Position numbers and translations under genes: made by a program. A stretch of 64,000 nt of DNA from Gammaproteobacteria bacterium (GTDB lineage Bacteria; Pseudomonadota; Gammaproteobacteria; UBA4575): assembly GCA_965243395.1 (NCBI GenBank), contig CBDEUS010000002.1, positions 96,001 to 160,000 on the forward strand, written 5' to 3'. Below, piece by piece: positions 36,720 through 49,591 of the stretch (position 1 is the first letter of the stretch; each line of letters starts with the position of its first letter). The notes below the pieces were generated by a model. The model did no database searches, was not told where the DNA came from, and saw nothing but the letters and a program-made list of their open reading frames with translations.

Positions 36720-36729
36720 AATCAGTACC

Positions 36730-37710: not shown

Positions 37711-38459
37711 TCATTTGTATTAAATTCACGTTTTTTTAAAGGAAGAATCCACATTTGATAAATAGATGTGAACCACATAAAAGTCGAAGCAGCTGTGTAA
37801 CCAAAACCACCGATTAAAGTGAACCATGCAAATATTGGAATCCATTTAGTAAGCCACCATGACATGACATCTACAATTAAAAACAAGAAAGGTAGAGCGA
37901 TTGCTGATGCCTTAAGCCAATTAGGAATTCCAACCGCAAAGCTAAAAATCAATCCTACAAAGAAGAAAATAAATGAAATACCAAACAAATGAATATGTGA
38001 AACTCTTGTTAGCGAACCAATAGAAGCACCTTCATCTATTTCGCTCACAGATTTAACGTTTTCAAACTTAGTAAAGTCTGGTAGTCCAGGTTCTTCATCA
38101 TGGCAAAAGACACAATTCTTTTGAAAAATAATGTTTATGTTTTCATTCCAACCTTTTTCTGATGCACCTTCTCTTACCCATTTAATAATTTGTGCGCGAT
38201 CATGCGATGATGCTTTGTCTTTCATCGAGCCATTTAATTTATTCTCTAATTTGCTATTTTCACGATTGCCGTAGTAGCTATAGACGATGTCATCTACTGA
38301 GACACCAAGCTTTCCATCCGCCATGCCGTGAGTAAGTAAAATTTGCATTCCTGCCATCAATAACCCCAAACCTATCGCTAATAAATAACCAGTAAATAGC
38401 ACACGAACGGATAGTGCTAATGATGGTAGATTCATATACTCGCCATATTTGGTCTTCAT
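37698..38459 (-). CDS. Membrane protein with c-type heme motif
   Basis: CVFCH, SHIHLFG, 4 TM. Confidence 0.7.
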   Translation of the reverse strand: MKTKYGEYMNLPSLALSVRVLFTGYLLAIGLGLLMAGMQILLTHGMADGKLGVSVDDIVYSYYGNRENSKLENKLNGSMKDKASSHDRAQIIKWVREGASEKGWNENINIIFQKNCVFCHDEEPGLPDFTKFENVKSVSEIDEGASIGSLTRVSHIHLFGISFIFFFVGLIFSFAVGIPNWLKASAIALPFLFLIVDVMSWWLTKWIPIFAWFTLIGGFGYTAASTFMWFTSIYQMWILPLKKREFNTNEWGV

Positions 38460-38629
38460 ATTCTTCCCTTAAAAAATGAGATCTATTAGTTAATAAACTG
38501 TGTTCAGCAGGAAGATTAGGGGGCAAACAAGGAAATAACTTCCCGCTTTATAGAGAAGGAATAGAAATAAAATTTACTGTTGAAAACCAGTAAGTTAGAT
38601 AATTACTGGTTTATAAAATAGGAATGTAA

Positions 38630-39643
38630 TTAGTCAGATTCTAGGTTTTTTCTGTAGTTTCCTGGGGACATCCCAGTAATTTCACGAAATGCCGAGTAGA
38701 AGTTGGACTGGGACTTAAACCCGTTTGCTAAGCCTACAGAAAGTACTGATGCATTAGGCTCATTGGTTAGCATATTTTTAGCCTCAGTAACGCGTCTTTC
38801 TCTTATGAATCGAGGAAATCCACAGTCATATTGTGTATTGATTAATTCAGATAATTGATGACTATTAATATCGAGCATTTCTGCAAGCATGCTTAAACTT
38901 AGGTTCTCATTTTGATAAACCTTGTCATCATTCATAAGTTTTTCTAAAGAAGCACGCACAGATTCAACATTGATGCCTCCTAAAGTAGATTTTGCGTAGG
39001 CAGCTTCCGTAATTTCAACAATGTCACTTAGCAATTCAGGAAAGATAATTACCGATGCTGTAACTAATAACATTGCAATCCCTATTGAAGAGGCATATGC
39101 GCCAAAAAAGATTGTGTGGTTTATATAAGGCACAGATAAACCGAGTATCAAAGCTAACAAAGCCATCAACGCAAACAACAAACCAAAGAATATTTCAAAT
39201 TTGAAACGACTACTCTGAGGGCGTAATTGGAAAATAATTCTTGCAATCCAAAATGTATATCCTGTTCCAATTAAAAAAGCGATTACCGGAATTATTTTTA
39301 CAGGAAGAAATAAACCTATAGCGACTGGCACAAAGTGAAGAATATGATAGATGCTTAGCTTCGATTCCGGGAATAAAACTACTCGACTGAAAAAATAAAA
39401 CGTCATTGGAACAAAAAGCAATAAATATAAATATCCACGATTATTGAGTAAATCAGTATCGTTGGAAAAATATAGATAATGCCAAAATTGCAAACCAGAA
39501 AGAGAAATCAGCAATGCAACACAAGACAACTTGCTGATGAAGTTCTTCCTAATATTTGGGAGAAAAAATAAATATGAAAAAAGAAGAATAACTGCGCTGA
39601 ATATAGAAAACCCAGCTATCAATTGTACAAATGTAGATACCAT
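38630..39643 (-). CDS. Membrane-anchored AraC-family regulator
   Basis: About 7 TM followed by HTH GFKSQSNFYSAFREITGMSP. Confidence 0.88.
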   Translation of the reverse strand: MVSTFVQLIAGFSIFSAVILLFSYLFFLPNIRKNFISKLSCVALLISLSGLQFWHYLYFSNDTDLLNNRGYLYLLLFVPMTFYFFSRVVLFPESKLSIYHILHFVPVAIGLFLPVKIIPVIAFLIGTGYTFWIARIIFQLRPQSSRFKFEIFFGLLFALMALLALILGLSVPYINHTIFFGAYASSIGIAMLLVTASVIIFPELLSDIVEITEAAYAKSTLGGINVESVRASLEKLMNDDKVYQNENLSLSMLAEMLDINSHQLSELINTQYDCGFPRFIRERRVTEAKNMLTNEPNASVLSVGLANGFKSQSNFYSAFREITGMSPGNYRKNLESD

Positions 39644-39811
39644 CTTATTGTTCTTGTGCCCCAGCTAAATATACATCTACATTCTATATGTGATTAGCCG
39701 ACATGTATTCATCGGATCAATAAATTTAAGCCAAATAAAAACAGTAGATTACGATTTATATGACTCTTGTTTGAATAATATCCACCGTACTTCCACCAAA
39801 GTATTGATTAT

Positions 39812-40594
39812 CTATACCCAAGTGCTATTCAAGGTATCCCTAAAATAGTTATTTAAACCCTCAGCTTCAGCCTCAGAGCTTTTTTGAGCAAATTTTGTGT
39901 CCTCTAATCGATTTAATTCAGATTCAATAAACTCATTTAGTACTGTAATCTTTTCTGAAGTATCTTTCTCAAATCCAGATTTTTTTCGCTCTAGCAAGTT
40001 ATTTATGGCACTAAGAAGCTTATTGTCATCAACTAACTTTTCTATTAGTTTGGAAAATTCAGTGGGCACCACGCCATAATCATTTTCTATCCATTGCACT
40101 GCTAATAATGGGCGAAGAACATAAAAATATTTTTTTAAACGAACTTGTTCTTTCTGCAAATGCTCTTTATATGTTCTTTTAGCCATACTTAAATAATGAT
40201 AGGCGCATGAAACTGGTGAAAAACTTTTTGGGAGTAAGTTTTGAAACCCATCAGAAAATTTTTCCTTATCTTTATAGACAATAGGAGACCCTATCCACTC
40301 AATCAAAGGTGGATTAGATTTTCGTAACAATCCGAGTGCCTTTCTCAGATCCCAACCATTTATATCAAGCAAATCATCTATAGGTAATTCGATCACATCT
40401 CTTTTGTGTTCAAGATCAATAGATAGATACCACTCAGGTGGATGTATATAAATAAAACGTACGTCAAAATCACTATCTTTAGATGCAAACCCCCACGCTC
40501 GACTACCCGATTCACAGGCATACAAAACTTGAACATTATATTCATCTTCAATTTCATCAAGCTTTTGAAGGATCTCTTCTTTTCTTTCTATCAT
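39812..40594 (-). CDS. Pol-beta-superfamily nucleotidyltransferase (RlaP/YcgL-like, RtcB-associated)
   Basis: ESGSRAWGFASKDSDFDVRF, WDLRKAL, NPPLIEW, KKYFYVLRP. Confidence 0.88.
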   Translation of the reverse strand: MIERKEEILQKLDEIEDEYNVQVLYACESGSRAWGFASKDSDFDVRFIYIHPPEWYLSIDLEHKRDVIELPIDDLLDINGWDLRKALGLLRKSNPPLIEWIGSPIVYKDKEKFSDGFQNLLPKSFSPVSCAYHYLSMAKRTYKEHLQKEQVRLKKYFYVLRPLLAVQWIENDYGVVPTEFSKLIEKLVDDNKLLSAINNLLERKKSGFEKDTSEKITVLNEFIESELNRLEDTKFAQKSSEAEAEGLNNYFRDTLNSTWV

Positions 40595-40602
40595 AGGTAT
40601 AT

Positions 40603-40902
40603 CTAGAAAAAAGTTTTAACAGTTAAAACTATTCCTAAGATTGGTAGCAATAAAAGCCAAATAATAAATATAGTGGCAATTAATATATTAGCTAAATACG
40701 AAGACTCCACTCCTTCGTCTTCCCAATCTTCATCTGCACAAATTACAGATACAAAATCTGAATTAAACTCAACATTAGAATGTTTATTATCAATTGCGAT
40801 ATCAATCGCATCTTTTAGTAACATTAAACCATCCTTATTGCCTGCAATATTATCTTCATATCTTTCACTGTAAATTTTTACCCAAGCTGTTTCATTATAC
40901 AT
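40603..40902 (-). CDS. Hypothetical protein with C-terminal TM
   Basis: AGGAG RBS; lies between rtcB and the nucleotidyltransferase. Confidence 0.6.
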   Translation of the reverse strand: MYNETAWVKIYSERYEDNIAGNKDGLMLLKDAIDIAIDNKHSNVEFNSDFVSVICADEDWEDEGVESSYLANILIATIFIIWLLLLPILGIVLTVKTFF

Positions 40903-40916
40903 TCAACTACTCCTAA

Positions 40917-42113
40917 CTATCCTTTTACACATACAACTTGACGCAAAGTGTGTTCAACGCTTACTAAATCATTTTGGTTTTCCATCACCACATCAATATC
41001 TTTATATGCGCCAGGAATTTCATCTAACACACCTTTGTCTTTACGACATTCAACACCAGCCGTTTGCGCTTCAATATCTTCTTCATTGAAATGGCGTTTT
41101 GCTTTACCACGACTCATACGTCGACCTGCACCATGCGAACATGAACTAAATGATTCAGGGTTACCTTTGCCACGAACAATGTAAGATTTAGCGCCCATAC
41201 TACCCGGAATAATTCCAAGCTCATCCACACCAGCACGAATCGCACCTTTGCGTGTAATGTAAACATTTTCACCAAAATGGTTTTCCATAGACACATAATT
41301 ATGATGACAATTGATGGCTTCTTTAGTGATACCAAATTTCGGTAACACTTTTTTTAATGCATCAATTATCAAGCGCATCATTTCTTTGCGATTTTCCATT
41401 GCGTAATCTTGAGCCCAGTTCACTGCATTTACATAGTCATCAAAGTGCTCTGCCCCTTCAGTAAAATATGCTAAATCTTTATCTGGCAAATTATGAATAT
41501 GCTTTTGCATATCTTTTTGTGCTAATCGAATAAAGAATTGGCCAATAATATTCCCTACTCCACGGCTACCCGAATGAAGCATAATCCATACATCATTATT
41601 TTCATCTAAACAGATTTCAATAAAATGATTCCCACCACCAAGTGTGCCTAGTTGACGCACCCAAGTTTGATAAGGCTTTTTCTGCATCTTTAAAAGTTTG
41701 GGGTGTTTTTCTAGTAAGCGATCTAAACCGTCAGATAAAGGTCGTATAGTTGAATTGCGAGCTTTATCTGACTTATGCATATCAAAACCAACAGGTATTG
41801 CAACTTCAATAGCAGTACGCACTTTGCGTAAGTTATCTGGAAGATCATTAGCATTCATTGAAAGACGCAAAGCATTCATTCCACAACCAATGTCTACACC
41901 AACCGCAGCAGGAATAATTGCACCTTTACATGGAATTACCGAACCCACAGTCGCACCTTTACCAAAGTGCACATCCGGCATCGCCGCAATATGACTATGG
42001 ATAAAAGGCAACTGTGATAGGTTGCATAGTTGCTGGTAGGCTTCGTGCTCTATGTCATCAGTATAGATTTTTACTCGCACATTACCTTTGGTAATGACTT
42101 TTTTAATTGGCAT
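40917..42113 (-). CDS. rtcB: RNA ligase RtcB
   Basis: MPDVH, VGVDIGCG, GGGNHF, HSGSRG, HNY, SHGAGR, AYK. Confidence 0.96.
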   Translation of the reverse strand: MPIKKVITKGNVRVKIYTDDIEHEAYQQLCNLSQLPFIHSHIAAMPDVHFGKGATVGSVIPCKGAIIPAAVGVDIGCGMNALRLSMNANDLPDNLRKVRTAIEVAIPVGFDMHKSDKARNSTIRPLSDGLDRLLEKHPKLLKMQKKPYQTWVRQLGTLGGGNHFIEICLDENNDVWIMLHSGSRGVGNIIGQFFIRLAQKDMQKHIHNLPDKDLAYFTEGAEHFDDYVNAVNWAQDYAMENRKEMMRLIIDALKKVLPKFGITKEAINCHHNYVSMENHFGENVYITRKGAIRAGVDELGIIPGSMGAKSYIVRGKGNPESFSSCSHGAGRRMSRGKAKRHFNEEDIEAQTAGVECRKDKGVLDEIPGAYKDIDVVMENQNDLVSVEHTLRQVVCVKG

Positions 42114-42125
42114 ATGTCACCCTAA

Positions 42126-42367
42126 TTAATCTCTAAAATATTCATTTCTATTAGAACCATCATGTCGCTTTTTCTTCAAGCAACAATTCTTGAAATCTAC
42201 GCCCTGATCCACATACACATGGATCATTCCGGCCGAACTTCTCGCTAAGTTCTTTATTGCCATGAACGATTCTATTTCCTCGTTTAACGTTTGTTTCTGA
42301 TGGGAATCCTTTACGACGTTTACTCATACGCTCAAAAGGATTGATCCTTATTTTTAAATTTACACAT
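42126..42367 (-). CDS. SEC-C motif protein split over three frames (two +1 shifts)
   Basis: GAGGTG-ATG 42367; middle frame [14 protein letters not shown]; the +1 frame continues FKNCC...EYFRD*. Confidence 0.7.
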
Positions 42368-42393
42368 GTTGCACCTCACATTACTAAACTAAA

Positions 42394-42780
42394 TCAGTTG
42401 TATTTTTTGCGATAGTTACTGGTAAAAGGTTGCGCAACAATTTGATAATCATCTTGATAGCGTATCCTTCCAATTTCCTCACATTTAATCATATCTACAG
42501 CAATACCTTTATTTTGTATTACAGAAAAGAGCTTCCACATAACGCGTATATGCTCTTGTGCACTAGGTTTAAACCAACACAGGCAGCGATAGTTACCGGG
42601 TATCTTCAAAATAGGAGGCACAATTAAATTTCTATCAATCCATCTAAACACATATTGAACTTCTTCATATTCATAATCAGTGAATGAATTGTTGTATTTT
42701 AGCTTGTACGCAAGATGTATTAGGCCTTGTTCATAACGTGACCTCCTGTCTTGGCACAGCCCAATAAATCGTAAGTACAT
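42394..42780 (-). CDS. Hypothetical protein in the rtcB operon
   Basis: 128-aa ORF, CLCWFK, YQDDYQIVA. Confidence 0.7.
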   Translation of the reverse strand: MYLRFIGLCQDRRSRYEQGLIHLAYKLKYNNSFTDYEYEEVQYVFRWIDRNLIVPPILKIPGNYRCLCWFKPSAQEHIRVMWKLFSVIQNKGIAVDMIKCEEIGRIRYQDDYQIVAQPFTSNYRKKYN

Positions 42781-42869
42781 TTTTAATATCCATTTATATT
42801 ATTTCTCAAATTTAATTAAATGACGCAGGCCCTCAAATAATAGAGGGCCTTTGTCAGTTTATACTCACG

Positions 42870-44018
42870 CTACCCATCAACTTTGATTTGTACCGTGTCT
42901 TTTAGGATGCCATCCAAACCTCCGAAGACAGTTAGTTTGTCTACTTTGTCAGTGACTTTTTCCAACGTCTCCAACTCTTTCAAGCGCATCAAGGTTGGGT
43001 TGTCATCCATCAATTTCGCAGTGTTCAACAATGAACGTGTAGCTGCAGTTTCTTCACGTCTTTTAATGACATTTGCTTGCGCCACTTTTTCTGCTTGAAC
43101 TACTTGGTTCAAGATATCTTTCATGTCGCCTGGCAAAATGACATCTTTCACGCCAACGCTGCGAATTTCGATACCGTATTCAGATACGTTTGCTTTAACA
43201 GATTCGTAGACGTATTTGTCTAGTTCATCTTTAGTTACAAGCAATGCATCCAAAGTGCGTGTACCAATTACCTGACGAAGTGCAAATTGCATTTCGCGGT
43301 AAATGTATCCAGCAAGGTCTACCAATTCATGACGCGCTTTAATTGGGTCACGAATTTGATATTGAGCTGACAAGTTTGCACGTAGGCTAACTTTGTCTTT
43401 TGTCAAAACCTCTTGACCTTGCACTTCCATGCTTTGCATTCGCAAATCAACTTGTTCAACTATTACGTTGCGGTTGTATTTCCAGTATGCGTACAAGCCT
43501 GGTTGCAATGATTCTTTTAATTCACCATCCACAACCAATAGGCCAACATAGTTGTCTGCAACTTCTGCGATGTAAATTGAATTAATCAATTCACTTGGTA
43601 CTTGTTTCGCACGTGTGTGCACAAACTGACCCACTTTATTTGCAGGCAATGCAAAATCTTCTGCAATATTTTGCACTTCAACTGTCATTTCAACTGGACC
43701 TTTCCAAAATAATTGGCGTGTACCAGGTGCTACAACAGTGCTCAATTGGCCACGTTGATAAACCAATCCAACTTCATATGCGTCGGTTTCAACAACTTGG
43801 AAGTATTTTGTTACTATCTCAGGTTGTTCTTTTACCAAGACATCCACATATTTGTGGTTGAATTGCGCTTCCGTTACATCATAAATCTCGACTTGAATTC
43901 GGCCGAAAATATCGAAATATCGATATACGCCTGGTTCAAGCACTTTTACAATGCTTCGGTTTTTCAAGTAAATTCCTCGCTCATGCTGCGCAATAACAAT
44001 TCTTTTAAATCCGAACAT
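42870..44018 (-). CDS. Slipin-family SPFH/band-7 protein
   Basis: GQEVLTKDKV, RREETAATRSLLNTA, LMRLKELE. Confidence 0.92.
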   Translation of the reverse strand: MFGFKRIVIAQHERGIYLKNRSIVKVLEPGVYRYFDIFGRIQVEIYDVTEAQFNHKYVDVLVKEQPEIVTKYFQVVETDAYEVGLVYQRGQLSTVVAPGTRQLFWKGPVEMTVEVQNIAEDFALPANKVGQFVHTRAKQVPSELINSIYIAEVADNYVGLLVVDGELKESLQPGLYAYWKYNRNVIVEQVDLRMQSMEVQGQEVLTKDKVSLRANLSAQYQIRDPIKARHELVDLAGYIYREMQFALRQVIGTRTLDALLVTKDELDKYVYESVKANVSEYGIEIRSVGVKDVILPGDMKDILNQVVQAEKVAQANVIKRREETAATRSLLNTAKLMDDNPTLMRLKELETLEKVTDKVDKLTVFGGLDGILKDTVQIKVDG

Positions 44019-44044
44019 AATTACTCCTTATTAAATAAAGTTTC

Positions 44045-44515
44045 GGGAAATGCTCCACATATAAATTGCGGGTAAACTCCTGTTGTAGTAACGGGTCTAA
44101 AATCTTTCGCATGTCATTGCGATACCCCAACTATCGCTTTGAACATGTTTCAGTCTCTAGACTGGTTATCACAAGCTTGTGATCACGCAGGCAATCTACA
44201 TGTTGCGACATAAAAAACTCTCAACCGTAGTTGAGCTATTTGAAATGTCGCGGGAACATTTCCCTGGTTAGTGTTTTCACACAAAATGCGGATTCGAACC
44301 GCAGGCTTTCGCCATTACCAATGAACAACGTTTAAAGTTGTCGAAAGAACAGGAATCGAACCTGCAACATTTCCGTTATCAGCGGAATGCTCTCCCTTTG
44401 AGCTATCTTTCACTGGTGTATCGGACCACTTACAACTTTGTATACACATTGCAATCACCTTTCGGCTTAGCTTTTGTGCACAGGTCTGAATTCAAGAATC
44501 AGATCCGCTAAGTAA
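44045..44515 (-). ncRNA. Candidate highly structured ncRNA/leader upstream of slipin
   Basis: Dense hairpins, GNRA tetraloop GGC-GAAA-GCC, stand-alone T-arm TGCGG-TTCGAAT-CCGCA, nested tRNA-like domain. Confidence 0.6.
44341..44412 (-). tRNA. tRNA-Ile(GAT)-like domain lacking encoded CCA
   Basis: Full cloverleaf, TTCCG-CT-GAT-AA-CGGAA, GGTTCGATTCC. Confidence 0.65.
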
Positions 44516-44636
44516 ATAAATGTCTCTCAATACTCATGAACTCAATGTTTATAAAACATCGAATTACAATTCTTTAAATACAGGTGACCTGCCCCATTGC
44601 AGGCCACCATTTTTCACGCCCCCTTTCTCCTAAAAT

Positions 44637-45203
44637 TTAACGTCGCTCTTTAGGACATTGTGTTTTCAAGAACGCCATTTGGTCTGCCAAAATTTTGCGG
44701 TTAGATAAAATCAATCCTTCTGCATAATTTGGCTCATATGGAATTCCTAATAATGAAATTCCTATTCTTTCTGCCTCACTAGGCATTAAGCTATCTTTAC
44801 GTGCATTACATGCACGGCATGCTGTAACCACATTCATCCATGTGTTTTTCCCACCACGTGATAGTGGAATCACATGATCGCGCGTTAAGCGATTTCGAGA
44901 ATATTGATCACCGCAATACATGCACATGTAATCATCACGTCGAAACAATCTTGCATTTGTCAGTGCAGGCACTTCACGAATGTGGTCGTCTGATCGCATC
45001 ACACCATGTGTTGCAACAATACTGTTCACATCAATAAATGAACGAGTTCTTGTTCTGCGATTTACACCACCATGAATACGAAAAGAATTTGAACCCATTT
45101 CGTAAACAACTTGTTCTCGTGCATACACTAATGCTGCATATTCCCAGTTCATCCATTCAACTGGACGCCCAGCTACGTCTAAACGCAAAATTAAATTTTC
45201 CAT
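44637..45203 (-). CDS. HNH endonuclease
   Basis: RRDDYMCMYCG, TRDHVIP, NVVTACRACN. Confidence 0.92.
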   Translation of the reverse strand: MENLILRLDVAGRPVEWMNWEYAALVYAREQVVYEMGSNSFRIHGGVNRRTRTRSFIDVNSIVATHGVMRSDDHIREVPALTNARLFRRDDYMCMYCGDQYSRNRLTRDHVIPLSRGGKNTWMNVVTACRACNARKDSLMPSEAERIGISLLGIPYEPNYAEGLILSNRKILADQMAFLKTQCPKERR

Positions 45204-45231
45204 TTAACTTTTCTCTTTTATAAAGTTACTG

Positions 45232-45254
45232 TTTAACAATTTGGATGATTGAAG
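45232..45254. repeat. Trailer arm of perfect 23-bp inverted repeat enclosing the tRNA array
   Basis: TTTAACAATTTGGATGATTGAAG = reverse complement of 48565-48587. Confidence 0.95.
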
Positions 45255-45263
45255 AGTTTAATT

Positions 45264-45340
45264 TGGTACGCAGCCCCAGATTTGAACTGGGAATCAAGTA
45301 GGTTTGAGCTACTCAGGTCTTCCAATTGCCTCAGCTGCGC
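45264..45340 (-). tRNA. tRNA-Leu(CAA), short variable loop
   Basis: AGTAG-CT-CAA-AC-CTACT, CCA. Confidence 0.85.
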
Positions 45341-45352
45341 AAAAATTTAATT

Positions 45353-45429
45353 TGGTATCCCTGGCAAGATTCGAACTTGCAACATTCTGGTTTTAAGTCA
45401 GATGCGTCTTCCGGTTGCGCCACAGGGAC
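45353..45429 (-). tRNA. tRNA-Leu(TAA), short variable loop
   Basis: TCTGA-CT-TAA-AA-CCAGA, CCA. Confidence 0.85.
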
Positions 45430-45440
45430 GTAATGTAATT

Positions 45441-45518
45441 TGGTAGCCACCCTCGGATTTGAACCGAGATGCACCATGTTCTAAGCATGGTAGGTATGCC
45501 AATTCCCGTCAGATGGCC
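45441..45518 (-). tRNA. tRNA-Leu(TAG), short variable loop
   Basis: CCATG-CT-TAG-AA-CATGG, CCA. Confidence 0.85.
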
Positions 45519-45561
45519 AAAATTTTTATTTTTATAATTTAGTTATACATAAATTATGATT

Positions 45562-45637
45562 TGGTACCCCTAGTAAGATTCGAACTCACATCAACTGATT
45601 TAGAAGATCAGTGCTTTTCCAATTAAGCTATAGAGGT
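45562..45637 (-). tRNA. tRNA-Arg(TCT)
   Basis: CTGAT-CT-TCT-AA-ATCAG, CCA. Confidence 0.9.
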
Positions 45638-45659
45638 AAAAAACTAATTGAATTATTTT

Positions 45660-45756
45660 TGGTACCCCAACCAAGATTCGAACTTGGATCTACCACTAAT
45701 CTGGTGCGTGAATCACGGGATATAAATCCGCTGCTTTACCGTTAAGCTATTGGGGC
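45660..45756 (-). tRNA. tRNA-Ile(TAT) with ~27-nt extra region
   Basis: GCGGA-TT-TAT-AT-CCCGT, 97 nt, CCA. Confidence 0.75.
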
Positions 45757-45765
45757 AAAATTTTT

Positions 45766-45839
45766 TGGACACTCCGCTCAGAATTGAACTGAGTCCTCAA
45801 GGGTTGCAACCTTGCGTCTTGCCGATCGACCACGGAGTG
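45766..45839 (-). tRNA. tRNA-Cys(GCA)
   Basis: CAAGG-TT-GCA-AC-CCTTG, U73, CCA. Confidence 0.88.
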
Positions 45840-45840
45840 T

Positions 45841-45915
45841 TGGCACATCCGGAAAGATTTGAACTTTCATCTTTGGGTTTGGAGGCCAATGTTCTGCCAA
45901 TTGAACTACAGATGC
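45841..45915 (-). tRNA. tRNA-Trp(CCA)
   Basis: CT-CCA-AA loop, G73, CCA. Confidence 0.88.
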
Positions 45916-45917
45916 TC

Positions 45918-45993
45918 TGGCTGGGAGTCCTGGACTCGAACCAAGATCTCAAGAGTCAAAGTCTTGCGTCTTAACCAGTTAGACGAATTCCCA
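45918..45993 (-). tRNA. tRNA-Gln(TTG)
   Basis: CAAGA-CT-TTG-AC-TCTTG, U1-A72, G73. Confidence 0.9.
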
Positions 45994-46002
45994 TTTTTGT
46001 TT

Positions 46003-46079
46003 TGGCGCGGTTGGAAAGACTCAAACTTTCATCTTCGACTTTCGTAGAGTCGTGCTTTATCCGATTAAGCTACAACCGC
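46003..46079 (-). tRNA. tRNA-Arg(ACG)
   Basis: CGACT-CT-ACG-AA-AGTCG, CCA. Confidence 0.9.
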
Positions 46080-46087
46080 AAAAACTT

Positions 46088-46163
46088 TGGTAGCCCGAAT
46101 CCGATTCGAACGGATAACTTTCGCTTTGTAAGAACGACACTCTGCCAATTGAGTTATCGGGCT
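46088..46163 (-). tRNA. tRNA-Val(TAC)
   Basis: TCGTT-CT-TAC-AA-AGCGA, CCA. Confidence 0.9.
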
Positions 46164-46171
46164 AAAATTTT

Positions 46172-46243
46172 TGGTAGTTACGGTTAGAATCGAACTAACA
46201 AGTCCAGGGTTATGAGCCCTAGCCGAAGACCACTTCCGTAACT
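46172..46243 (-). tRNA. Initiator-like tRNA-Met(CAT) with aberrant short D-arm
   Basis: TAGGG-CT-CAT-AA-CCCTG (3 G-C pairs), 72 nt, CCA. Confidence 0.75.
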
Positions 46244-46251
46244 AAAGTATT

Positions 46252-46325
46252 TGGTGGATCCAGTAGGAGTCGAACCTACCTCTGCGGGTTAAAAGCCCGC
46301 TGCACAACCGCTATGCCATAGATCC
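46252..46325 (-). tRNA. tRNA-Lys(TTT)
   Basis: GCGGG-CT-TTT-AA-CCCGC, CCA. Confidence 0.9.
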
Positions 46326-46326
46326 T

Positions 46327-46402
46327 TGGCACGCCTGAAAGGAGTTGAACCTTTATCTCACTGGTTCGAAGCCAGTGGCTCTTCCAATTAAGCTACAGAC
46401 GT
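46327..46402 (-). tRNA. tRNA-Arg(TCG)
   Basis: ACTGG-CT-TCG-AA-CCAGT, CCA. Confidence 0.88.
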
Positions 46403-46404
46403 AT

Positions 46405-46495
46405 TGGCGGAGAAGAACAGATTCGAACTGTTGAATGAAAAATTTCCATCCCTCCTTTAGCAAAGGAGTGCTTTAAACCACTCAGCCACTTCTCC
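46405..46495 (-). tRNA. tRNA-Ser(GCT)
   Basis: CTCCT-TT-GCT-AA-AGGAG, long variable arm, G73. Confidence 0.9.
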
Positions 46496-46555
46496 AATTT
46501 ATAATTTGCAGCGCTTCGCGATATTTAATTTGCGAGTAATACCCACTCGCAAGCG

Positions 46556-46631
46556 TGGGGTGAACTACCGGACTCGAACCGGTATCTACCAGATTCACGT
46601 TCTGGGGCTTTGCCATTAAGCTAAGCTCACC
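46556..46631 (-). tRNA. tRNA-His(GTG)
   Basis: CCAGA-AC-GTG-AA-TCTGG, encoded G-1 and C73. Confidence 0.88.
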
Positions 46632-46642
46632 ATAATTATTTT

Positions 46643-46734
46643 TGGCGGAAGGCGGAGGGCACGATCCCCACCAACTAAAAAGCCAGCCACCAGTTTTCAA
46701 GACTGGGACACCCCCACTGGGTGAATCACCTTCC
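46643..46734 (-). tRNA. tRNA-Ser(TGA), non-canonical 8/4 fold
   Basis: CCAGT-CT-TGA-AA-ACTGG; 8-bp acceptor GGAAGGTG/CGCCTTCC, 4-bp T stem, long variable arm, G73. Confidence 0.8.
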
Positions 46735-46749
46735 TTATATATGTAAATT

Positions 46750-46824
46750 TGGAGCGGATAATCGGATTCGAACCGATATTTATGGTTTGGAAGACCATCA
46801 CTCTGCCAATTGAGTTATACCCGC
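46750..46824 (-). tRNA. tRNA-Gly(TCC)
   Basis: ATGGT-CT-TCC-AA-ACCAT, U73. Confidence 0.9.
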
Positions 46825-46829
46825 AGATT

Positions 46830-46907
46830 TGGTCTGAGTGGCTGGATTCGAACCAACGACCTCTCGCTTCCAAGGCGAGTACTCTGCCCAGGCTGAGCTA
46901 CACTCAG
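46830..46907 (-). tRNA. tRNA-Pro(TGG)
   Basis: CTCGC-CT-TGG-AA-GCGAG, C1-G72. Confidence 0.9.
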
Positions 46908-46934
46908 AGAATTAATTAAATATAAAAAATTATT

Positions 46935-47010
46935 TGGTGCATCGAGTTGGACTTGAACCAACGACCACACGATTATCGGTCGTGCGCTCTACCAACTGAG
47001 CTATCGATGC
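46935..47010 (-). tRNA. tRNA-Ile(GAT)
   Basis: CACGA-CC-GAT-AA-TCGTG, CCA. Confidence 0.9.
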
Positions 47011-47011
47011 T

Positions 47012-47086
47012 TGGTGTTCCTGACCAGAATTGAACTGGCATCTCGAGTTTGAAAGACTCGTGACCTCACCATTAGTCGACAGGAAC
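47012..47086 (-). tRNA. tRNA-Glu(TTC)
   Basis: CGAGT-CT-TTC-AA-ACTCG, CCA. Confidence 0.9.
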
Positions 47087-47100
47087 TAATAAAATATTTT

Positions 47101-47176
47101 TGGCGGACCCGATCGGACTCAAACCGACATCCCCTTTATCGACAGTAAAGTGCTTTATCAATTAAGCTACGAATCC
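47101..47176 (-). tRNA. tRNA-Asp(GTC)
   Basis: CTTTA-CT-GTC-GA-TAAAG, G73. Confidence 0.88.
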
Positions 47177-47184
47177 AACTTTTG

Positions 47185-48045
47185 TTTAAAGGTTGAGACT
47201 ATGCCTTTAAAAATCACTCTTTTGTTGAAGTACCTAACGCATTGCTGTGCGATAGTTGCCAACGTGTCCACATTACCCTGGTTGCTCCAGCGATTATGTT
47301 AGTGATCATGACTGCTTTTTTTAAAGTGTAGCGATTCACTTGTCGCGTTAATCTATTCAGCTATTCACTTACCGAGAACCTTGCCAGGCTCTAAACGGAG
47401 GCTATCCGAACGTGCAATGAAGTAACTAAAGTTCTTTGGCTTGCGACCGCAGAATCTTCCATGTTCCCAAGTGGGCATGGACTTAAGTCATTTTCAATTA
47501 ACACCGAGACGCGTCTTTGCGTTTCACCGTATGGTGATCTATGTGGGAGTCGAACCCACGACCTATTGATTCTAAGTCAATCGCTCTACCAATCTGAGCT
47601 AAAAGATCAGGTACTACTAAGACGTGCACGTCTCAGTTGCTTCATTATTTTTTGAATAACGAAATACAACACGCCTTTTGTCTTTCCTCTGCCGAGTACT
47701 TAACCGAATATTCGGATCATGGCTTCCACCCATTTCCCTAATAATCTGCACAACCGCACTTGTCTGCAAAACTCGTACTATGTTGTACTACCTGTTATCT
47801 CTCGTAGTACGCAATCTAGTATCACGGGTTACAGCACTACCTGTATCTTTCTCACGACCCGTATTCCCAAGTAAACCTGGTACGTCAATCGTGGTACTTC
47901 CGCGTATTGCTTGGCTACTATTGCCGATTGAATTACGACAACATGGAGACCAGGCTTGCTTGGTTTGACCTACTTTGAAAAGTGGGCGAAATACCGTAGT
48001 CGTATTCCTTTCCTATCGTTGCCGATAGTTATCGTGCCAAGCCAC
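47185..48045 (-). ncRNA. Large structured ncRNA, GOLLD-like, with nested tRNA
   Basis: ~860 nt with no credible ORF inside the tRNA array, many stems, repeated ACAGGTAGT motif, 3' hairpin TTTAAAGG-CATAGTCTCAA-CCTTTAAA; family assignment from recalled properties, not a search. Confidence 0.6.
47532..47608 (-). tRNA. Class-I-shaped tRNA with TAG (Leu) anticodon nested in the large ncRNA
   Basis: ATTGA-CT-TAG-AA-TCAAT, GGTTCGACTCC, CCA; one acceptor-stem mismatch. Confidence 0.8.
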
Positions 48046-48050
48046 ATATT

Positions 48051-48126
48051 TGGTGGAGGATCACGGATTTGAACCGTGCGCCTTCTGTTTGCAATACAGA
48101 CGCTCTGCCAACTGAGCTAATCCCCC
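48051..48126 (-). tRNA. tRNA-Ala(TGC)
   Basis: AT-TGC-AA loop, G3-U70. Confidence 0.9.
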
Positions 48127-48135
48127 AAACTTATT

Positions 48136-48210
48136 TGGCTGCGACGGTTGGACTCGAACCAACATTGCTTCGCTTAACAGACGAATGTTCTACCATTGAA
48201 CTACATCGCA
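48136..48210 (-). tRNA. tRNA-Asn(GTT)
   Basis: TTCGT-CT-GTT-AA-GCGAA, G73. Confidence 0.9.
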
Positions 48211-48218
48211 ATTATATT

Positions 48219-48295
48219 TGGTGCATCAGGATGGATTCGAACCACCATCGCGTCGGGCTTCAACCGACCGCTCTACCCATTGGAGCTACCGATGC
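48219..48295 (-). tRNA. tRNA-Phe(GAA)
   Basis: GTCGG-TT-GAA-GC-CCGAC, CCA; unrelated in sequence to the att-type Phe fragments. Confidence 0.88.
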
Positions 48296-48304
48296 AAAAA
48301 TAAT

Positions 48305-48389
48305 TGGTGGAGAGAGATGGATTCGAACCACCACGCTAATAATTAGCACTGGGTTACAGCCAGCGTGTCTCACCAATGACTGTCTCTCC
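48305..48389 (-). tRNA. tRNA-Tyr(GTA)
   Basis: CTGG-CT-GTA-AC-CCAG, variable arm GCTAAT-T-ATTAGC. Confidence 0.85.
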
Positions 48390-48401
48390 TAAAGTTAAAA
48401 C

Positions 48402-48477
48402 TGGAGCTGGTGATAGGCGTCGAACCTACAACCTACTGCTTACAAAGCAGTTGCTCTGCCATTTGAGCTACACCAGC
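48402..48477 (-). tRNA. tRNA-Thr(TGT)
   Basis: ACTGC-TT-TGT-AA-GCAGT, CCA. Confidence 0.9.
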
Positions 48478-48486
48478 AAAAAATAT

Positions 48487-48559
48487 GGGACAGTCGCACA
48501 TGCGCACAACTCAACTTAGGAGTTGGGCATAATTTAAAAATTAAATTACGCACTGCCCC
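48487..48559 (-). ncRNA. Small four-way-junction RNA element at the head of the array
   Basis: Closing stem GGGGCAGT/ACTGTCCC with three internal hairpins. Confidence 0.45.
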
Positions 48560-48564
48560 GCCTA

Positions 48565-48591
48565 CTTCAATCATCCAAATTGTTAAAGAGC
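48565..48591 (-). promoter_or_regulatory. rrn-type boxA antitermination site overlapping the leader arm of the 23-bp inverted repeat
   Basis: GCTCTTTAACAATTT matches the gammaproteobacterial rrn boxA. Confidence 0.85.
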
Positions 48592-48604
48592 TACTGCCAG
48601 GACT

Positions 48605-48639
48605 AAAAAACCCCGGAAGGCGAACCTAACCGGGGTTTT
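48605..48639 (-). terminator. Intrinsic terminator (attenuator) before the tRNA array
   Basis: AAAACCCCGGTTAGGT-TC-GCCTTCCGGGG-TTTTTT. Confidence 0.88.
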
Positions 48640-48693
48640 ATTTTGATTCCGGAAGGCTCGCAACGCGCACCCTCCGAATTAATTTGGAAGGTA

Positions 48694-48849
48694 CTACGTA
48701 ATTGGGTCCTCTAAGGTGGCCCCAATAAAATTATTTGTGCCGAGATTCGATATCTCATGCACAGCAACACACCACAAAAAACACGACGGCTTTAATAACC
48801 GCTGCATTAGTTGCGCTGAAAAACTAGTTGTATATGTACTTCTATTCAT
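48694..48849 (-). CDS. Putative 51-aa leader peptide MNRSTYTTSFSAQLMQRLLKPSCFLWCVAVHEISNLGTNNFIGATLEDPIT
   Basis: Starts 10 nt after the -10 box; stop abuts the first attenuator segment; contains all 20 amino acids. Confidence 0.7.
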   Translation of the reverse strand: MNRSTYTTSFSAQLMQRLLKPSCFLWCVAVHEISNLGTNNFIGATLEDPIT

Positions 48850-48859
48850 AGTGCGCGAA

Positions 48860-48887
48860 AGTCTAATGATATGGATTTTAAAGTCAA
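48860..48887 (-). promoter_or_regulatory. sigma70-like promoter with GC-rich discriminator
   Basis: TTGACT-N16-TAGACT-TTCGCGCACT-ATG. Confidence 0.72.
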
Positions 48888-48937: not shown

Positions 48938-49591
48938 TTAATCCTCAAGGGCTGACAAAAAAGAAATCATTGCTTTACGTTGTTTTTCATTTAAAGAGAG
49001 TGATGCAGAAATTATTTCTTGAATGTCCGTTAATTGTTTTTGAAATTCTTTATTGTTCAATTCTTTAGGTGCTTCATCCAACCAACCTACTGGTTTTTTT
49101 GCTGCAACTTCAATTCCTCTTGCAAACTCATCACTCATGCTTGGAATAAATGGTGTTTTGTAATGTTGTTGAAATAATTCCCATGATACTCCTGCTGATT
49201 CACATTCTTTTTTAGAACAAACCTTATTACCAGACTTTCCACATAGGGTCTTAAAGTTTGTAAATCTAACGATTTGAAGAAATGGGTCTAAGTTTTTTAC
49301 AGGAGCAGTGCCAAATAATAACCAATTGGTGGAATATCCAGTAACTTTGCTAATACCTTCAATGATTTTTAAATTTGGGTTTTGTGGAGCCGACGTTTCG
49401 TAAAGAGAAAGAAGTTGTTTTGACACCTTTAGTCTTCTTTTTTTCAATAATTGCATCATCTCACTTGGATCAATGCCATTAACTACACGTGCAAAACGCA
49501 CCCTTGATGAAACTGTAGCTAATTCATTTTTTCGTTTTGAACTACTAGTTGATTTTTTGGAGACACGACGTTTAGATTTATTTTTTACCAT
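48938..49591 (-). CDS. XRE/Cro-like HTH protein
   Basis: VSKQLLSLYE...ISKVTGYSTNWLLFG; second HTH-like ARGIEVAAKKPVGWLD. Confidence 0.7.
   Translation of the reverse strand: MVKNKSKRRVSKKSTSSSKRKNELATVSSRVRFARVVNGIDPSEMMQLLKKRRLKVSKQLLSLYETSAPQNPNLKIIEGISKVTGYSTNWLLFGTAPVKNLDPFLQIVRFTNFKTLCGKSGNKVCSKKECESAGVSWELFQQHYKTPFIPSMSDEFARGIEVAAKKPVGWLDEAPKELNNKEFQKQLTDIQEIISASLSLNEKQRKAMISFLSALED

Follow-up and report, generated by a model that had tools for sequence, protein, structure and literature searches.

The question raised by this locus is whether a block carrying tRNA genes, large RNAs and RNA-repair genes forms one unit under one control, and what that control would sense. The block lies on the chromosome of a marine gammaproteobacterium, on the minus strand from 49591 to 39812 of the window (the whole 64,000-nt stretch analysed). 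It runs from an HTH gene through a promoter, a leader ORF, a terminator with alternative pairings, a boxA, 27 tRNA genes and an HNH gene to a second structured RNA, an SPFH/slipin gene, a small SEC-C protein gene, RtcB and RlaP. A preliminary description had named twelve elements, of which eleven were found at or near the places it gave, all on the minus strand, and one (SEC-C) had been misread. The reading that we prefer, with a probability of about 0.6, is that of a horizontally acquired translation-damage operon, in which two known modules, a tRNA/GOLLD/HNH module and a band-7 RNA-repair module made up of the second RNA with its tRNA-like domain, SPFH, SEC-C, RtcB and RlaP, are placed behind one promoter and one attenuator; we infer that the block is regulated by the state of translation. 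The control region contains the following features.

48938..49591, minus strand: HTH regulator gene, 217 aa, first gene of the accessory block
48860..48887, minus strand: sigma-70-like promoter (TTGACT, 16 nt, TAGACT)
48694..48849, minus strand: leader ORF of 51 codons, with 20/20 amino acids
48605..48696, minus strand: attenuator (ViennaRNA folds, shuffle control, mask-length scan and pair counts)
48696-48694, minus strand: leader stop codon
48694-48686, minus strand: segment 1
48678-48665, minus strand: segment 2
48661-48648, minus strand: segment 3
48635-48611, minus strand: GC-rich terminator hairpin
48610-48605, minus strand: U run
48580..48591, minus strand: boxA-like motif GCTCTTTAACAA, the sole exact copy in the 2.58-Mb genome

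The regulator has a weak Pfam match to HTH_3 (E 0.0083) and matches a PHROG transcriptional regulator (E 6.9e-5). Its relatives adjoin the leader on the same strand in two related loci (L002 and L033) and are divergent to it in others (L007, L009, L011, L043, L048, L050, L051, L055 and L056). Synteny with a genome of the same genus breaks at 49646. The promoter already proposed is present as a promoter-like site at 48887-48860, and related loci share the layout. In the window, the leader ATG stands 10 nt past the -10 box and a Shine-Dalgarno sequence is absent, so the leader mRNA would be leaderless or nearly so, and translation of the leader would rest on this presumed leaderless start; a spacing of 8-10 nt between the -10 box and the ATG is also found in L002, L033, L057, L059, L060, L067, L078 and L080.

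The leader had been described as containing all 20 amino acids, and the 51-aa ORF at 48849-48694 does contain them. The probability of finding 20 kinds in 51 residues by chance is 0.026 from the proteome composition, 0.016 in real 51-aa protein windows and 0.021 in 1516 small ORFs of the source genome. All 20 are also present in the leaders of L002 (58 aa, with a 21-nt in-frame insertion) and L033 (50 aa, 44% identity, with a 3-nt in-frame deletion). Leaders that precede arrays have 18-20 kinds of amino acid and those of array-less loci 13-19, and over seven array-bearing lineages the kinds sum to 134 against 123.2 expected (P 0.00016 if the lineages are independent). The presence of 20/20 amino acids in array-bearing leaders is thus a tendency and not a rule.

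The attenuator is as it had been claimed, a GC-rich hairpin with a U run preceded by three alternatively pairing segments. The combination of leader ORF, terminator and alternative pairings recurs in 24 loci belonging to distinct sequence clades, among them Noviherbaspirillum, where leader and terminator lie directly upstream of rtcB. These 24 loci were folded with the RNA either free or masked over 15 nt from the leader stop codon, and dinucleotide shuffles served as the control. When the RNA is free, the 5' arm of the terminator is paired upstream; the 15-nt mask releases it. The mean shift on masking is 4.0 nt, as against 0.19 in the shuffles (1.75 in the top one of 100 shuffle sets), with at least 3 nt in 16 of the 24 loci and at most 2 nt in the other eight (L009, L049, L059, L105, L023, L024, L025 and L028). 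Since segment 1 directly follows the stop codon, the signal would be the arrival of a ribosome at that codon. The earlier proposal that the operon senses the progress of ribosomes therefore finds its counterpart in folding, where the leader region acts as a sensor of this arrival, and the model predicts read-through unless a ribosome occupies the leader stop codon.

Another possibility is that the switch is real but blind to the position of the ribosome: the leader region could be riboswitch-like or bound by a protein (it might, for example, sense uncharged or cut tRNA, or be a target for the HTH, SEC-C or RtcB protein), and the leader ORF could be incidental or encode a working micro-protein. 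The pattern of covariation is in keeping with this. The segment 2:3 helix and the terminator have 93.3% of cells paired, versus 32-59% when slid, and a covariation score of 0.191 (versus 0.131), which 1/500 shuffles reach. The covariation of the segment 1:2 helix on the alignment is not significant (231/500 shuffles reach it), its support coming from pairing potential (78.2% versus 42-53% when slid) and per-sequence folding. Segment 2 is moreover highly conserved, and across clades this also holds for the last codons of the leader and for the residues at its C-terminus, several leaders ending in GMT followed by the stop. However, across clades 0-3 nt separate segment 1 from the end of an ORF that has start signals, despite peptides that are unrelated in sequence and range from 9 to 67 aa; the indels in the leaders of the window's clade are in frame; and the switch in fold is specific to a mask of 6-18 nt, which is the footprint of a terminating ribosome, the effect being absent at 0 and at 24 nt or more. 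A sensor blind to ribosomes is for these reasons the least probable of the explanations that we consider, and a very improbable one.

The trp, his and leu attenuators have leaders rich in a single amino acid, and the ribosome stalls within segment 1. The present system resembles them in having a leader peptide, alternative hairpins and an intrinsic terminator; it differs in a leader that draws on 18-20 amino acids and in the place of segment 1, just past the stop codon.

A closer parallel is found in Pseudomonas aeruginosa, where a leader-peptide attenuator that senses stalled ribosomes is described as controlling the RtcB-like armZ (PMC12057347, PMC13041342). Full translation of PA5471.1 leads to the terminator, and stalling caused by antibiotics or by suhB or cca mutants leads to read-through (PMC13041342, PMC12057347). 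This attenuator, which was studied experimentally, is reported to work by ribosome position, and this argues further against a sensor of another kind. A short ORF upstream of an RtcB-like gene is common to both systems. As described, however, the PA5471.1 leader is short, and armZ is an efflux-pump anti-repressor linked to a release-factor-like gene, whereas the 51-codon leader of the window, compared with it by description, would gate tRNAs, GOLLD and a band-7 repair module and has a boxA downstream. The RtcB of the window also falls below the curated cut-offs when set against the armZ-type family, and below those of the PrfH-linked RtcB families.

According to the preferred reading, the promoter would probably be repressed by the adjacent HTH protein. 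When RNA polymerase transcribes the 51-codon leader, a first ribosome that keeps pace would reach the stop codon and cover segment 1, so that segments 2 and 3 pair and the terminator folds and ends transcription. With no ribosome on the leader, or with one held up at any point of it (for example because a tRNA is missing or has been cut, an antibiotic is present or the ribosome itself is damaged), segments 1 and 2 would pair, segment 3 would capture the 5' arm of the terminator, and the polymerase would read through. The boxA might then recruit Nus factors that spare the long untranslated array from Rho termination, and the cell would gain spare, sequence-divergent tRNAs, GOLLD RNA and repair enzymes.

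The boxA previously noticed is indeed present, as GCTCTTTAACAA at 48591-48580, and we take it to be identical to the core of the E. coli rrn boxA. As in rrn operons, the motif is found early in a long untranslated transcript; unlike there, the putative boxA precedes tRNAs and GOLLD instead of rRNA. The host's own rrn leader has a less exact version. In a scan allowing at most 2 mismatches within 220 nt after the terminator, a copy was found in 10/12 array-bearing loci versus 1/16 array-less loci, the background rate being 1.3% of random 220-nt windows.

The untranslated part of the block begins with these features.

48051..48477, minus strand: first block of the array (Thr, Tyr, Phe, Asn, Ala), with an encoded CCA in all
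47177..48050, minus strand: GOLLD RNA (Rfam 3' domain at 47190-47677, variable 5' part to about 48050)
45264..47176, minus strand: second block of the array, with 18 ARAGORN tRNAs and 3 weaker tRNA-like genes

Of the 25 tRNAs that ARAGORN finds in the window, 24 belong to the array and one lies further downstream. Three weaker array elements, a Ser(tga) at 46643-46734, a class-II-like element at 45660-45756 and a degenerate Met at 46171-46238, bring the array to the 27 that had been counted, to which a tRNA within the second RNA is added. The claim of a full set stands for 19 amino acids, which are securely covered, and falters at Met, which is provided by the weak, degenerate element only. 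The structured RNA estimated at about 860 nt is real and is the known GOLLD RNA (Rfam RF02032, 153.5 bits versus a gathering score of 150), in the untranslated gap 47177-48050. It is present as a single copy in the source genome, has a tRNA-Leu(tag) embedded in it (47532-47608), and reaches the gathering score in only 3 of the 19 array loci scanned.

The control could be as in the preferred reading with the array tRNAs serving another end: they could act on anticodon nucleases as decoys or sponges, or accompany GOLLD or the band-7 RNA as cargo or partners. The authors of the Anabaena work raise the idea of a sponge and report that array tRNAs are cleaved under stress (PMC8421152), and linked tRNAs have been proposed to sit in GOLLD cages (PMC12286853). 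In the window, the array has four tRNAs with Leu anticodons, of 77-78 nt each versus 85-88 nt for those of the host, and the Met tRNA is degenerate. On the other hand, 24/27 array tRNAs have normal scores (52-72 bits) and encoded CCA ends, and the 19-20 amino acids are mostly covered by one isoacceptor each, which fits a minimal decoding set; we therefore regard such a use as improbable, if less so than a switch blind to ribosomes. The array tRNAs have 54-72% identity to the host isoacceptors of the same anticodon, and elsewhere in its genome the host has only 36 tRNAs, each in a single copy.

The remainder of the block is made up as follows.

44637..45203, minus strand: HNH endonuclease gene, 188 aa (Pfam HNH_5, E 1.7e-16)
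44043..44575, minus strand: second structured RNA, about 530 nt (15-locus alignment and RNAalifold)
42870..44018, minus strand: SPFH/Band 7 (slipin-like), 382 aa (Pfam Band_7, E 7.9e-28)
42394..42780, minus strand: orphan 128-aa ORF, no family match
42160..42327, minus strand: SEC-C-motif protein, 55 aa, intact (Pfam SEC-C, E 7.8e-6)
40917..42113, minus strand: RtcB RNA ligase, 398 aa (Pfam RtcB, E 6.2e-131)
40603..40902, minus strand: 99-aa ORF, no family match (Pfam, NCBIfam, PHROG)
39812..40594, minus strand: RlaP nucleotidyltransferase, 260 aa (Pfam RlaP, E 2.9e-96)

Pfam thus bears out the HNH, slipin, rtcB and RlaP-like genes of the preliminary description. The second structured RNA at 44043-44575 is confirmed by covariation, with compensatory changes in 65 of 93 predicted pairs across 15 loci. 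Its covarying parts are a 5' domain of about 135 nt and a 3' domain of about 335 nt, whose sequence profiles match 27 and 28 loci, respectively; the tRNA apart, it matches no Rfam family. The tRNA embedded in it is a band-7-associated tRNA (44340-44412) with an Ile-type anticodon and a CCA that is not encoded, and a tRNA lies 230-620 nt upstream of SPFH in 74 of 93 SPFH-bearing sources.

Do these parts share one control? They could be a mosaic in which a phage-like tRNA/GOLLD/HNH cassette landed beside an RNA-repair module, the hairpin merely ending a transcript of the regulator and the small ORF, with promoters proper to the array and to the rtcB genes. GOLLD, tRNA arrays and HNH genes are indeed described as typical of phages and prophages (PMC12286853, PMC6582537). 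A hairpin after the HNH gene (44608-44583, 10 bp, weak U tail) could divide the unit, and modules vary from locus to locus: L002 is without RlaP, which is linked also in L050, L052 and L057, and L033 and L039 are without SPFH. Metatranscriptome contigs from three runs of one study span 47204-48033 with 1-3 differences each, which points either to read-through under natural conditions or to a separate promoter. Forty relatives are without the block, tRNA-sized matches aside, one genome of the same class having rtcB and SPFH.

Yet no consensus promoter that would split the array from rtcB, as the preliminary description had considered, is predicted on the coding strand from the attenuator to rtcB, the intervals 48604-48478 and 44636-44019 included. 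The search for the same order in other genomes, which it had suggested, yielded syntenic homologues: many loci repeat the order leader, terminator, (boxA, array, HNH), large RNA, SPFH and rtcB. RtcB is preceded by an array in L002, L004, L011, L033, L039, L043 and further metagenome loci, and relatives of the HNH gene stand at the array end in L002, L004, L011, L033, L039, L043, L047, L050-L052 and others. The boxA tracks the presence of the array, and in array-less loci the same attenuator has the large RNA and SPFH, or else rtcB, immediately after it. As had been claimed, phage structural genes are absent (a scan of 20 flanking and module ORFs found none). Of 2.9 million viral contigs, a single one encodes a relative of SPFH, and the coverage of the array by any phage record is at most 5%. 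A mosaic lacking a common control is thus unlikely, even if it is the strongest of the competing explanations.

Much of what the translation-damage operon would do has precedents. In Anabaena, a long tRNA array, HNH, rtcB and slipin are described as one regulon induced by translational stress, the trn operon of Anabaena sp. PCC 7120 being a silent array of 26 tRNAs induced on inhibition of translation, and HNH and rtcB often adjoin such arrays in other species (PMC8421152, PMC10272220). The window shares with this trn/TrcR regulon a tRNA array with HNH, rtcB and slipin. However, the Anabaena genes are described as lying apart from one another, under a ribbon-helix-helix repressor that acts at promoter repeats, and 'leader', 'terminator' and 'GOLLD' have 0 occurrences in the available text of PMC8421152, whereas the window has one block, an HTH-type regulator, an attenuator and a boxA. 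GOLLD RNA within tRNA arrays that have HNH is known from Mycobacterium and from prophages of Lactobacillales: it lies inside a large tRNA cluster which also holds an HNH gene, and a tRNA is embedded in GOLLD itself (PMC6582537). GOLLD is described as a 14-mer cage with tRNAs sometimes in its linker (PMC12286853). The window likewise has GOLLD within a tRNA cluster, an embedded tRNA and an HNH gene, but in a marine gammaproteobacterium, on the chromosome instead of in a prophage, with a repair module joined to the array and an attenuator in front. A band-7-associated tRNA adjoins a Band-7 protein and RtcB (Burroughs and Aravind 2016, as cited in bioRxiv 10.1101/312249), and RlaP has been associated with RNA ligases (as cited in bioRxiv 10.64898/2025.12.29.696909); the window resembles these band-7 repair systems in both respects. 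In vitro, RlaP is reported to extend the ends of cut tRNAs by adding nucleotides (bioRxiv 10.64898/2025.12.29.696909).

The claim that the combination is undescribed is therefore not upheld in kind, given the precedents of Anabaena, the armZ attenuator, the GOLLD and HNH arrays and the band-7-associated tRNA: the underlying biology is already known and most parts are described elsewhere. What appears to be new is the fusion of all parts into one unit with a putative gate, the long amino-acid-diverse leader and the boxA; the size of the second RNA may be new as well, the band-7 system of Burroughs and Aravind (2016) having been compared through citing papers. A leader-peptide switch in front of such a tRNA/repair block is not known to have been described. 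The earlier interpretation is thus supported in part, by the leader/terminator switch in silico and by synteny, and fails as to novelty in kind.

The SEC-C gene, thought to be frameshifted, is an intact small gene, and of 125 sources, 20 have a stand-alone SEC-C ORF, which may precede or follow rtcB. The 99-aa ORF has no relative in the fetched loci and is confined to the window. The 128-aa ORF is matchless in Pfam, NCBIfam and PHROG, and none of the other loci fetched has a relative. In L002, the closest locus, a PcfJ-like ORF of 480 aa stands in its place.

All elements of the block lie on the minus strand, running from 49591 to 39812 in a host genome of 2.58 Mb, and the preliminary description, which saw here a single run of leader, attenuator, tRNA genes, structured RNAs and RNA-repair genes, was mostly right in what it observed.

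Elements of the block in their order along the minus strand (window coordinates)
Minus strand, first in order: HTH regulator gene, 217 aa
48887-48860, minus strand: promoter-like site
48849-48694, minus strand: leader ORF, 51 codons
48635-48611, minus strand: terminator hairpin, GC-rich, with U run
48591-48580, minus strand: boxA-like motif GCTCTTTAACAA
Minus strand, 3' of boxA: first tRNA block, 5 tRNAs
Minus strand, between the tRNA blocks: untranslated GOLLD stretch, 874 nt
Minus strand: second tRNA block, 21 tRNA or tRNA-like genes, then the HNH gene
Minus strand, between HNH and SPFH/Band 7: untranslated stretch of 618 nt with one further tRNA
About 44043-44575, minus strand: second structured RNA, delimited by alignment and RNAalifold
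Minus strand, end of the block, in order: SPFH/Band 7 (slipin-like), 128-aa orphan ORF, 55-aa SEC-C-motif ORF, RtcB, 99-aa orphan ORF, RlaP

The genes flanking the block encode a peptidase, fatty-acid hydroxylases, a GH3-family protein, an enolase-like protein and an AraC regulator, and none among them is a phage structural or lysis gene, which bears out the earlier remark that phage structural genes are missing. An origin as a prophage or phage island was rejected on account of these non-phage flanks, of the best phage match, which covers 5% of the array, and of the finding of a single SPFH relative in viral contigs. The name of the GOLLD RNA and the low G+C had prompted the idea of an origin in the Lactobacillales; this was rejected, the nearest RtcB loci belonging to gammaproteobacterial MAGs labelled Arenicellales (98% and 88-90% identity). 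TRNA-sized matches excepted, the block is absent from 40 relatives (14 of the same genus, 10 of the same family and 16 of the same class), among which one same-class genome has rtcB together with SPFH, and synteny with a complete same-genus genome breaks off at 49646, beside the regulator gene. The related locus L002, which with L033 forms the window's clade, contains the block at 92-97% nucleotide identity; a PcfJ-like ORF replaces the 128-aa orphan there, and the 99-aa ORF and RlaP are missing. The block is accessory and modular. Downstream of RlaP, the stretch 35800-39700 (an AraC regulator and fatty-acid desaturase-like genes) was unmatched in five same-genus genomes, and the acquired region may extend past the operon on this side.

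In 24 loci, a short ORF that has start signals stands 5' of an intrinsic terminator. Their common plan opens with a -10 box, followed either by an ATG 8-10 nt further on or by a Shine-Dalgarno sequence and an ATG, and continues with the stop codon, 0-3 nt to the first of three pairing segments (48694-48686 in the window), segments 2 and 3 (48678-48665 and 48661-48648), a CCCCG...CGGGG hairpin and a U run. The start of the window leader is of the leaderless type, without a Shine-Dalgarno sequence. Over its whole length, the leader region of the window, L002 and L033 aligns with a mean column identity of 81%, and its indels (21 and 3 nt) sit within the ORF and keep the frame. In remoter loci, the leader peptides (9-67 aa) are unrelated in sequence and the plan is unchanged; it is also shared by array-less loci, in which the attenuator is followed by the large RNA and SPFH, and in four Noviherbaspirillum loci the attenuator stands immediately before rtcB. 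An Rfam scan returned no family fitting the leader other than tRNA.

Folding with ViennaRNA, from the stop codon to just 5' of the terminator's 3' arm, pairs segment 1 with segment 2 and segment 3 with the 5' arm of the terminator in the free RNA; masking the 15 nt from the stop codon lets segment 2 pair with segment 3 and releases the 5' arm. Across the 24 loci, the shift averaged 4.0 nt; when the upstream part was dinucleotide-shuffled, the average was 0.19 nt, and the highest of the 100 shuffle-set means was 1.75 nt. The shift was at least 3 nt in 16 of the loci and at most 2 nt in the other 8. The shift needs masks of 6-18 nt, and with a mask of 0 nt or of at least 24 nt, the antiterminator comes back. 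In an alignment of 18 sequences, 93.3% of the cells of the 2:3 helix and the terminator are paired versus 32-59% when the sequences are slid, and their covariation score was reached by only 1 of 500 shuffles. The 1:2 helix is paired in 78.2% of cells versus 42-53% when slid; its covariation on this alignment is not significant (231 of 500 shuffles reach the score), because segment 2 is too conserved and the window's clade is out of register. Since MAFFT sets the clades one or two columns off, the helix between segment 3 and the terminator arm was judged by per-sequence folding. These folding tests and pair counts together lend good support to the attenuator as a structure. We infer that the position of the ribosome would choose between the two predicted folds.

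The regulator gene beside the leader gives a weak HTH_3 match, and the RHH family is absent from its Pfam hits. In the clade with a divergent regulator, repeated CAAG-N3-CTTG-like palindromes lie over the -35 region of the promoters (L011:2914-2970, L043:3791-3850, L007:980-1040 and L009:7494-7550) and are likely operators of an HTH protein.

The presence of all 20 amino acids in the 51 residues of the window leader has a chance probability of 0.016-0.026. All 20 kinds are also found in the leaders of L002 (58 aa), L033 (50 aa, 44% identical) and another related locus, L048 (67 aa), and the remaining array-bearing leaders have 18-19. Summed over seven array-bearing lineages, there are 134 kinds versus 123.2 expected (P 0.00016), and over nine array-less leaders 149 versus 142.8 (P 0.076), in a test that assumes independence and applies the composition of this genome to all loci. 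An amino-acid-diverse leader in array-bearing loci is a tendency, not a rule. The leaders of trp-type attenuators are enriched in one regulatory amino acid, whereas the window leader has all 20 and is free of runs of a single kind of residue.

Behind the terminator comes a boxA-like motif, identified by the E. coli rrn consensus. The genome has a single exact copy of the 12-mer, placed, as in rrn operons, early in a long untranslated transcript. With up to 2 mismatches allowed and within 220 nt 3' of the terminator, a copy was found in 10 of the 12 loci with at least four downstream tRNAs versus 1 of the 16 with at most two, against a background of 1.3%; several of these loci are closely related, so that the count overstates their independence. 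A tie between this boxA-like motif and Nus factors would rest on the established knowledge of rrn operons, and the motif suggests that boxA-type antitermination may serve the transcription of long tRNA arrays.

The array packs its 27 tRNA genes into 3.2 kb of a single strand and thus has the size and density of a long tRNA array (at least 20 genes, extra to the housekeeping set). Outside it, the genome has 36 tRNA genes, all single-copy except three with a Met anticodon, plus tmRNA. Compared with the host isoacceptors, the array tRNAs show 54-72% identity. All of them encode the CCA end, and together they securely cover nineteen amino acids; for Met, there is only a degenerate element of 68 nt. 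In the array, tRNAs with Leu anticodons (45264-45518 and 47532-47608) measure 77-78 nt and have no long variable arm; the four tRNA-Leu genes of the host measure 85-88 nt. Short tRNAs with Leu anticodons likewise occur in the arrays of L002, L004, L033, L039 and L057. In the last of these loci, a group I intron (L057:14756-14975) lies on the opposite strand within minus-strand tRNA genes downstream of the module.

The giant structured RNA of the preliminary description is present and turns out to be a known one, GOLLD (RF02032), matched over model positions 1-416 of 416 with 153.5 bits, a narrow margin over the gathering score of 150. It is the only copy in the host genome. According to two reports (PMC12286853, PMC6582537), GOLLD RNAs sit among tRNA genes, may have a tRNA in the linker, have a variable 5' half, and measure about 800 nt or more. 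The window copy resembles them, lying between tRNA-Ala and tRNA-Asp in an untranslated gap of 874 nt with a tRNA-Leu(tag) embedded in its linker. In 16 of the 19 array loci scanned, GOLLD fell below the gathering score; diverged copies were possibly overlooked there, since even the window copy clears the cut-off by only 3.5 bits. In one study, three marine metatranscriptome runs gave contigs that cover 47204-48033 with 1-3 differences each, and therefore an RNA-library product of roughly the predicted size and place of GOLLD exists, the contigs being silent on strand, ends and regulation. In the same runs, the rest of an 8.1-kb stretch is represented by only a few short pieces, all of them partial matches at tRNA-like sequence, and the uncovered parts carry no information on expression.

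The single tRNA upstream of the SPFH gene (44340-44412) corresponds to the "band-7-associated tRNA" of Burroughs and Aravind, as cited in bioRxiv 10.1101/312249. In the window, this tRNA-like gene lies directly 5' of Band 7 with an RNA ligase nearby. Of 93 sources with SPFH, 74 have such a tRNA 230-620 nt 5' of the SPFH gene, and 14 of the remaining 19 offer less than 260 nt of upstream sequence; RtcB adjoins SPFH in many sources. Its anticodons give 28 different readings, irregular loops included, and only 10 of the 74 copies end in CCA, the window copy not among them. The element is not a standard decoding tRNA. When the stretch from HNH (or the attenuator) to SPFH was aligned for 15 loci, conserved blocks flanked the tRNA domain on both sides, and RNAalifold gave 93 pairs, 65 of them with at least one compensatory double change, long-range helices included. 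A sequence profile of the roughly 135-nt 5' domain matches 27 loci, and one of the roughly 335-nt 3' domain matches 28; in Rfam, the second RNA has no family besides tRNA. An extra T-arm-like hairpin of the GGTTCGAATCC type, at 44287-44303, 3' of the tRNA domain, is kept in most of the aligned loci. In the array-less loci L007 and L009, a small basic ORF with a shared His/Pro-rich motif (L007:1420-1626, 68 aa; L009:7889-8059, 56 aa) follows the attenuator and precedes the large band-7 RNA. The guess that it is an ArfA-like rescue factor was rejected, since neither Pfam nor NCBIfam gives a match.

Both RlaP and RtcB are well known as proteins of RNA repair (bioRxiv 10.64898/2025.12.29.696909). 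The window RtcB scores 144.6 bits against TIGR03073 (PrfH-linked, RtcB2/ArmZ-type; cut-off 271.8) and 175.9 against PRK09588 (cut-off 407), and so falls below both. The SEC-C gene had been described as frameshifted, and this was rejected on comparison of related loci, L002 included. Four further loci (L006, L010, L046 and L054) have two RtcB paralogues, about 60% and 84% identical to that of the window, the former adjoining HNH before the band-7 RNA. In L003, a group II intron domain (L003:8616-8844) separates a lone tRNA-Lys from rtcB.

In Anabaena, a 26-gene tRNA array, HNH, rtcB and slipin are kept off by the repressor TrcR and respond to inhibitors of translation by induction; HNH and rtcB genes are noted as frequent neighbours of long tRNA arrays (PMC8421152, PMC10272220). 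TrcR is reported from cyanobacteria only (PMC10272220). Its regulon has an RHH repressor and direct repeats over the -10 box, whereas the window has a weak HTH_3 regulator. In Pseudomonas aeruginosa, the leader peptide PA5471.1 attenuates the RtcB-like armZ: full translation leads to termination and stalling to read-through, in a mutant of the CCA-adding enzyme as well (PMC12057347, PMC13041342). With the TrcR regulon and PA5471.1-armZ described, both the idea behind the physiology and this type of switch are already published. For tRNA arrays or rtcB combined with a leader peptide, an attenuator or boxA, the literature searched yielded only PA5471.1-armZ, and it contained no account of an array, GOLLD, band-7 RNA and repair genes as one gated unit, of a long amino-acid-diverse leader, of boxA behind an attenuator or of an extended band-7 RNA.

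The earlier interpretation, in which the operon senses ribosome progress and supplies tRNAs and repair enzymes after damage, is plausible and supported in part in silico. Spare tRNA arrays, GOLLD and the band-7 tRNA-like RNA are each widespread, with roles that are unknown or partly known. A joint reading, to which we give a probability of only about 0.3, is that a "translation speedometer" leader gates spare tRNAs, a putative GOLLD cage and a tRNA repair station. The long leaderless ORF would sample nearly all the amino acids, so that a delay at any codon, whether brought about by an antibiotic, by ribosome damage or by a tRNA that is cut or missing, would open a single gate. The cargo would be a spare decoding set, a GOLLD cage RNA and an ornate RNA of about 530 nt around a tRNA-like domain, the last of which might form, with SPFH, the SEC-C protein, RtcB and RlaP, the tRNA repair station. 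The predicted input to this single unit is a simple one, namely whether or not the ribosome finishes a short ORF in time. If this reading is true, GOLLD, of unknown function since 2009, would find a physiological place in how the cell responds to translation damage, and the RNA of about 530 nt would define a new class of large RNA. The functions of GOLLD and the band-7 RNA would then be testable in a defined setting, in an operon that translation inhibitors or an anticodon nuclease could switch and in which the contribution of each part could be asked. The attenuator principle, known from a single resistance regulator in Pseudomonas, would moreover extend across a broad family of operons for RNA repair.

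Elsewhere in the window, an Rfam match to 5_ureB_sRNA (83.1 bits) at 9846-10128 is antisense to an ORF of 567 aa, in surroundings that look like a urease cluster.
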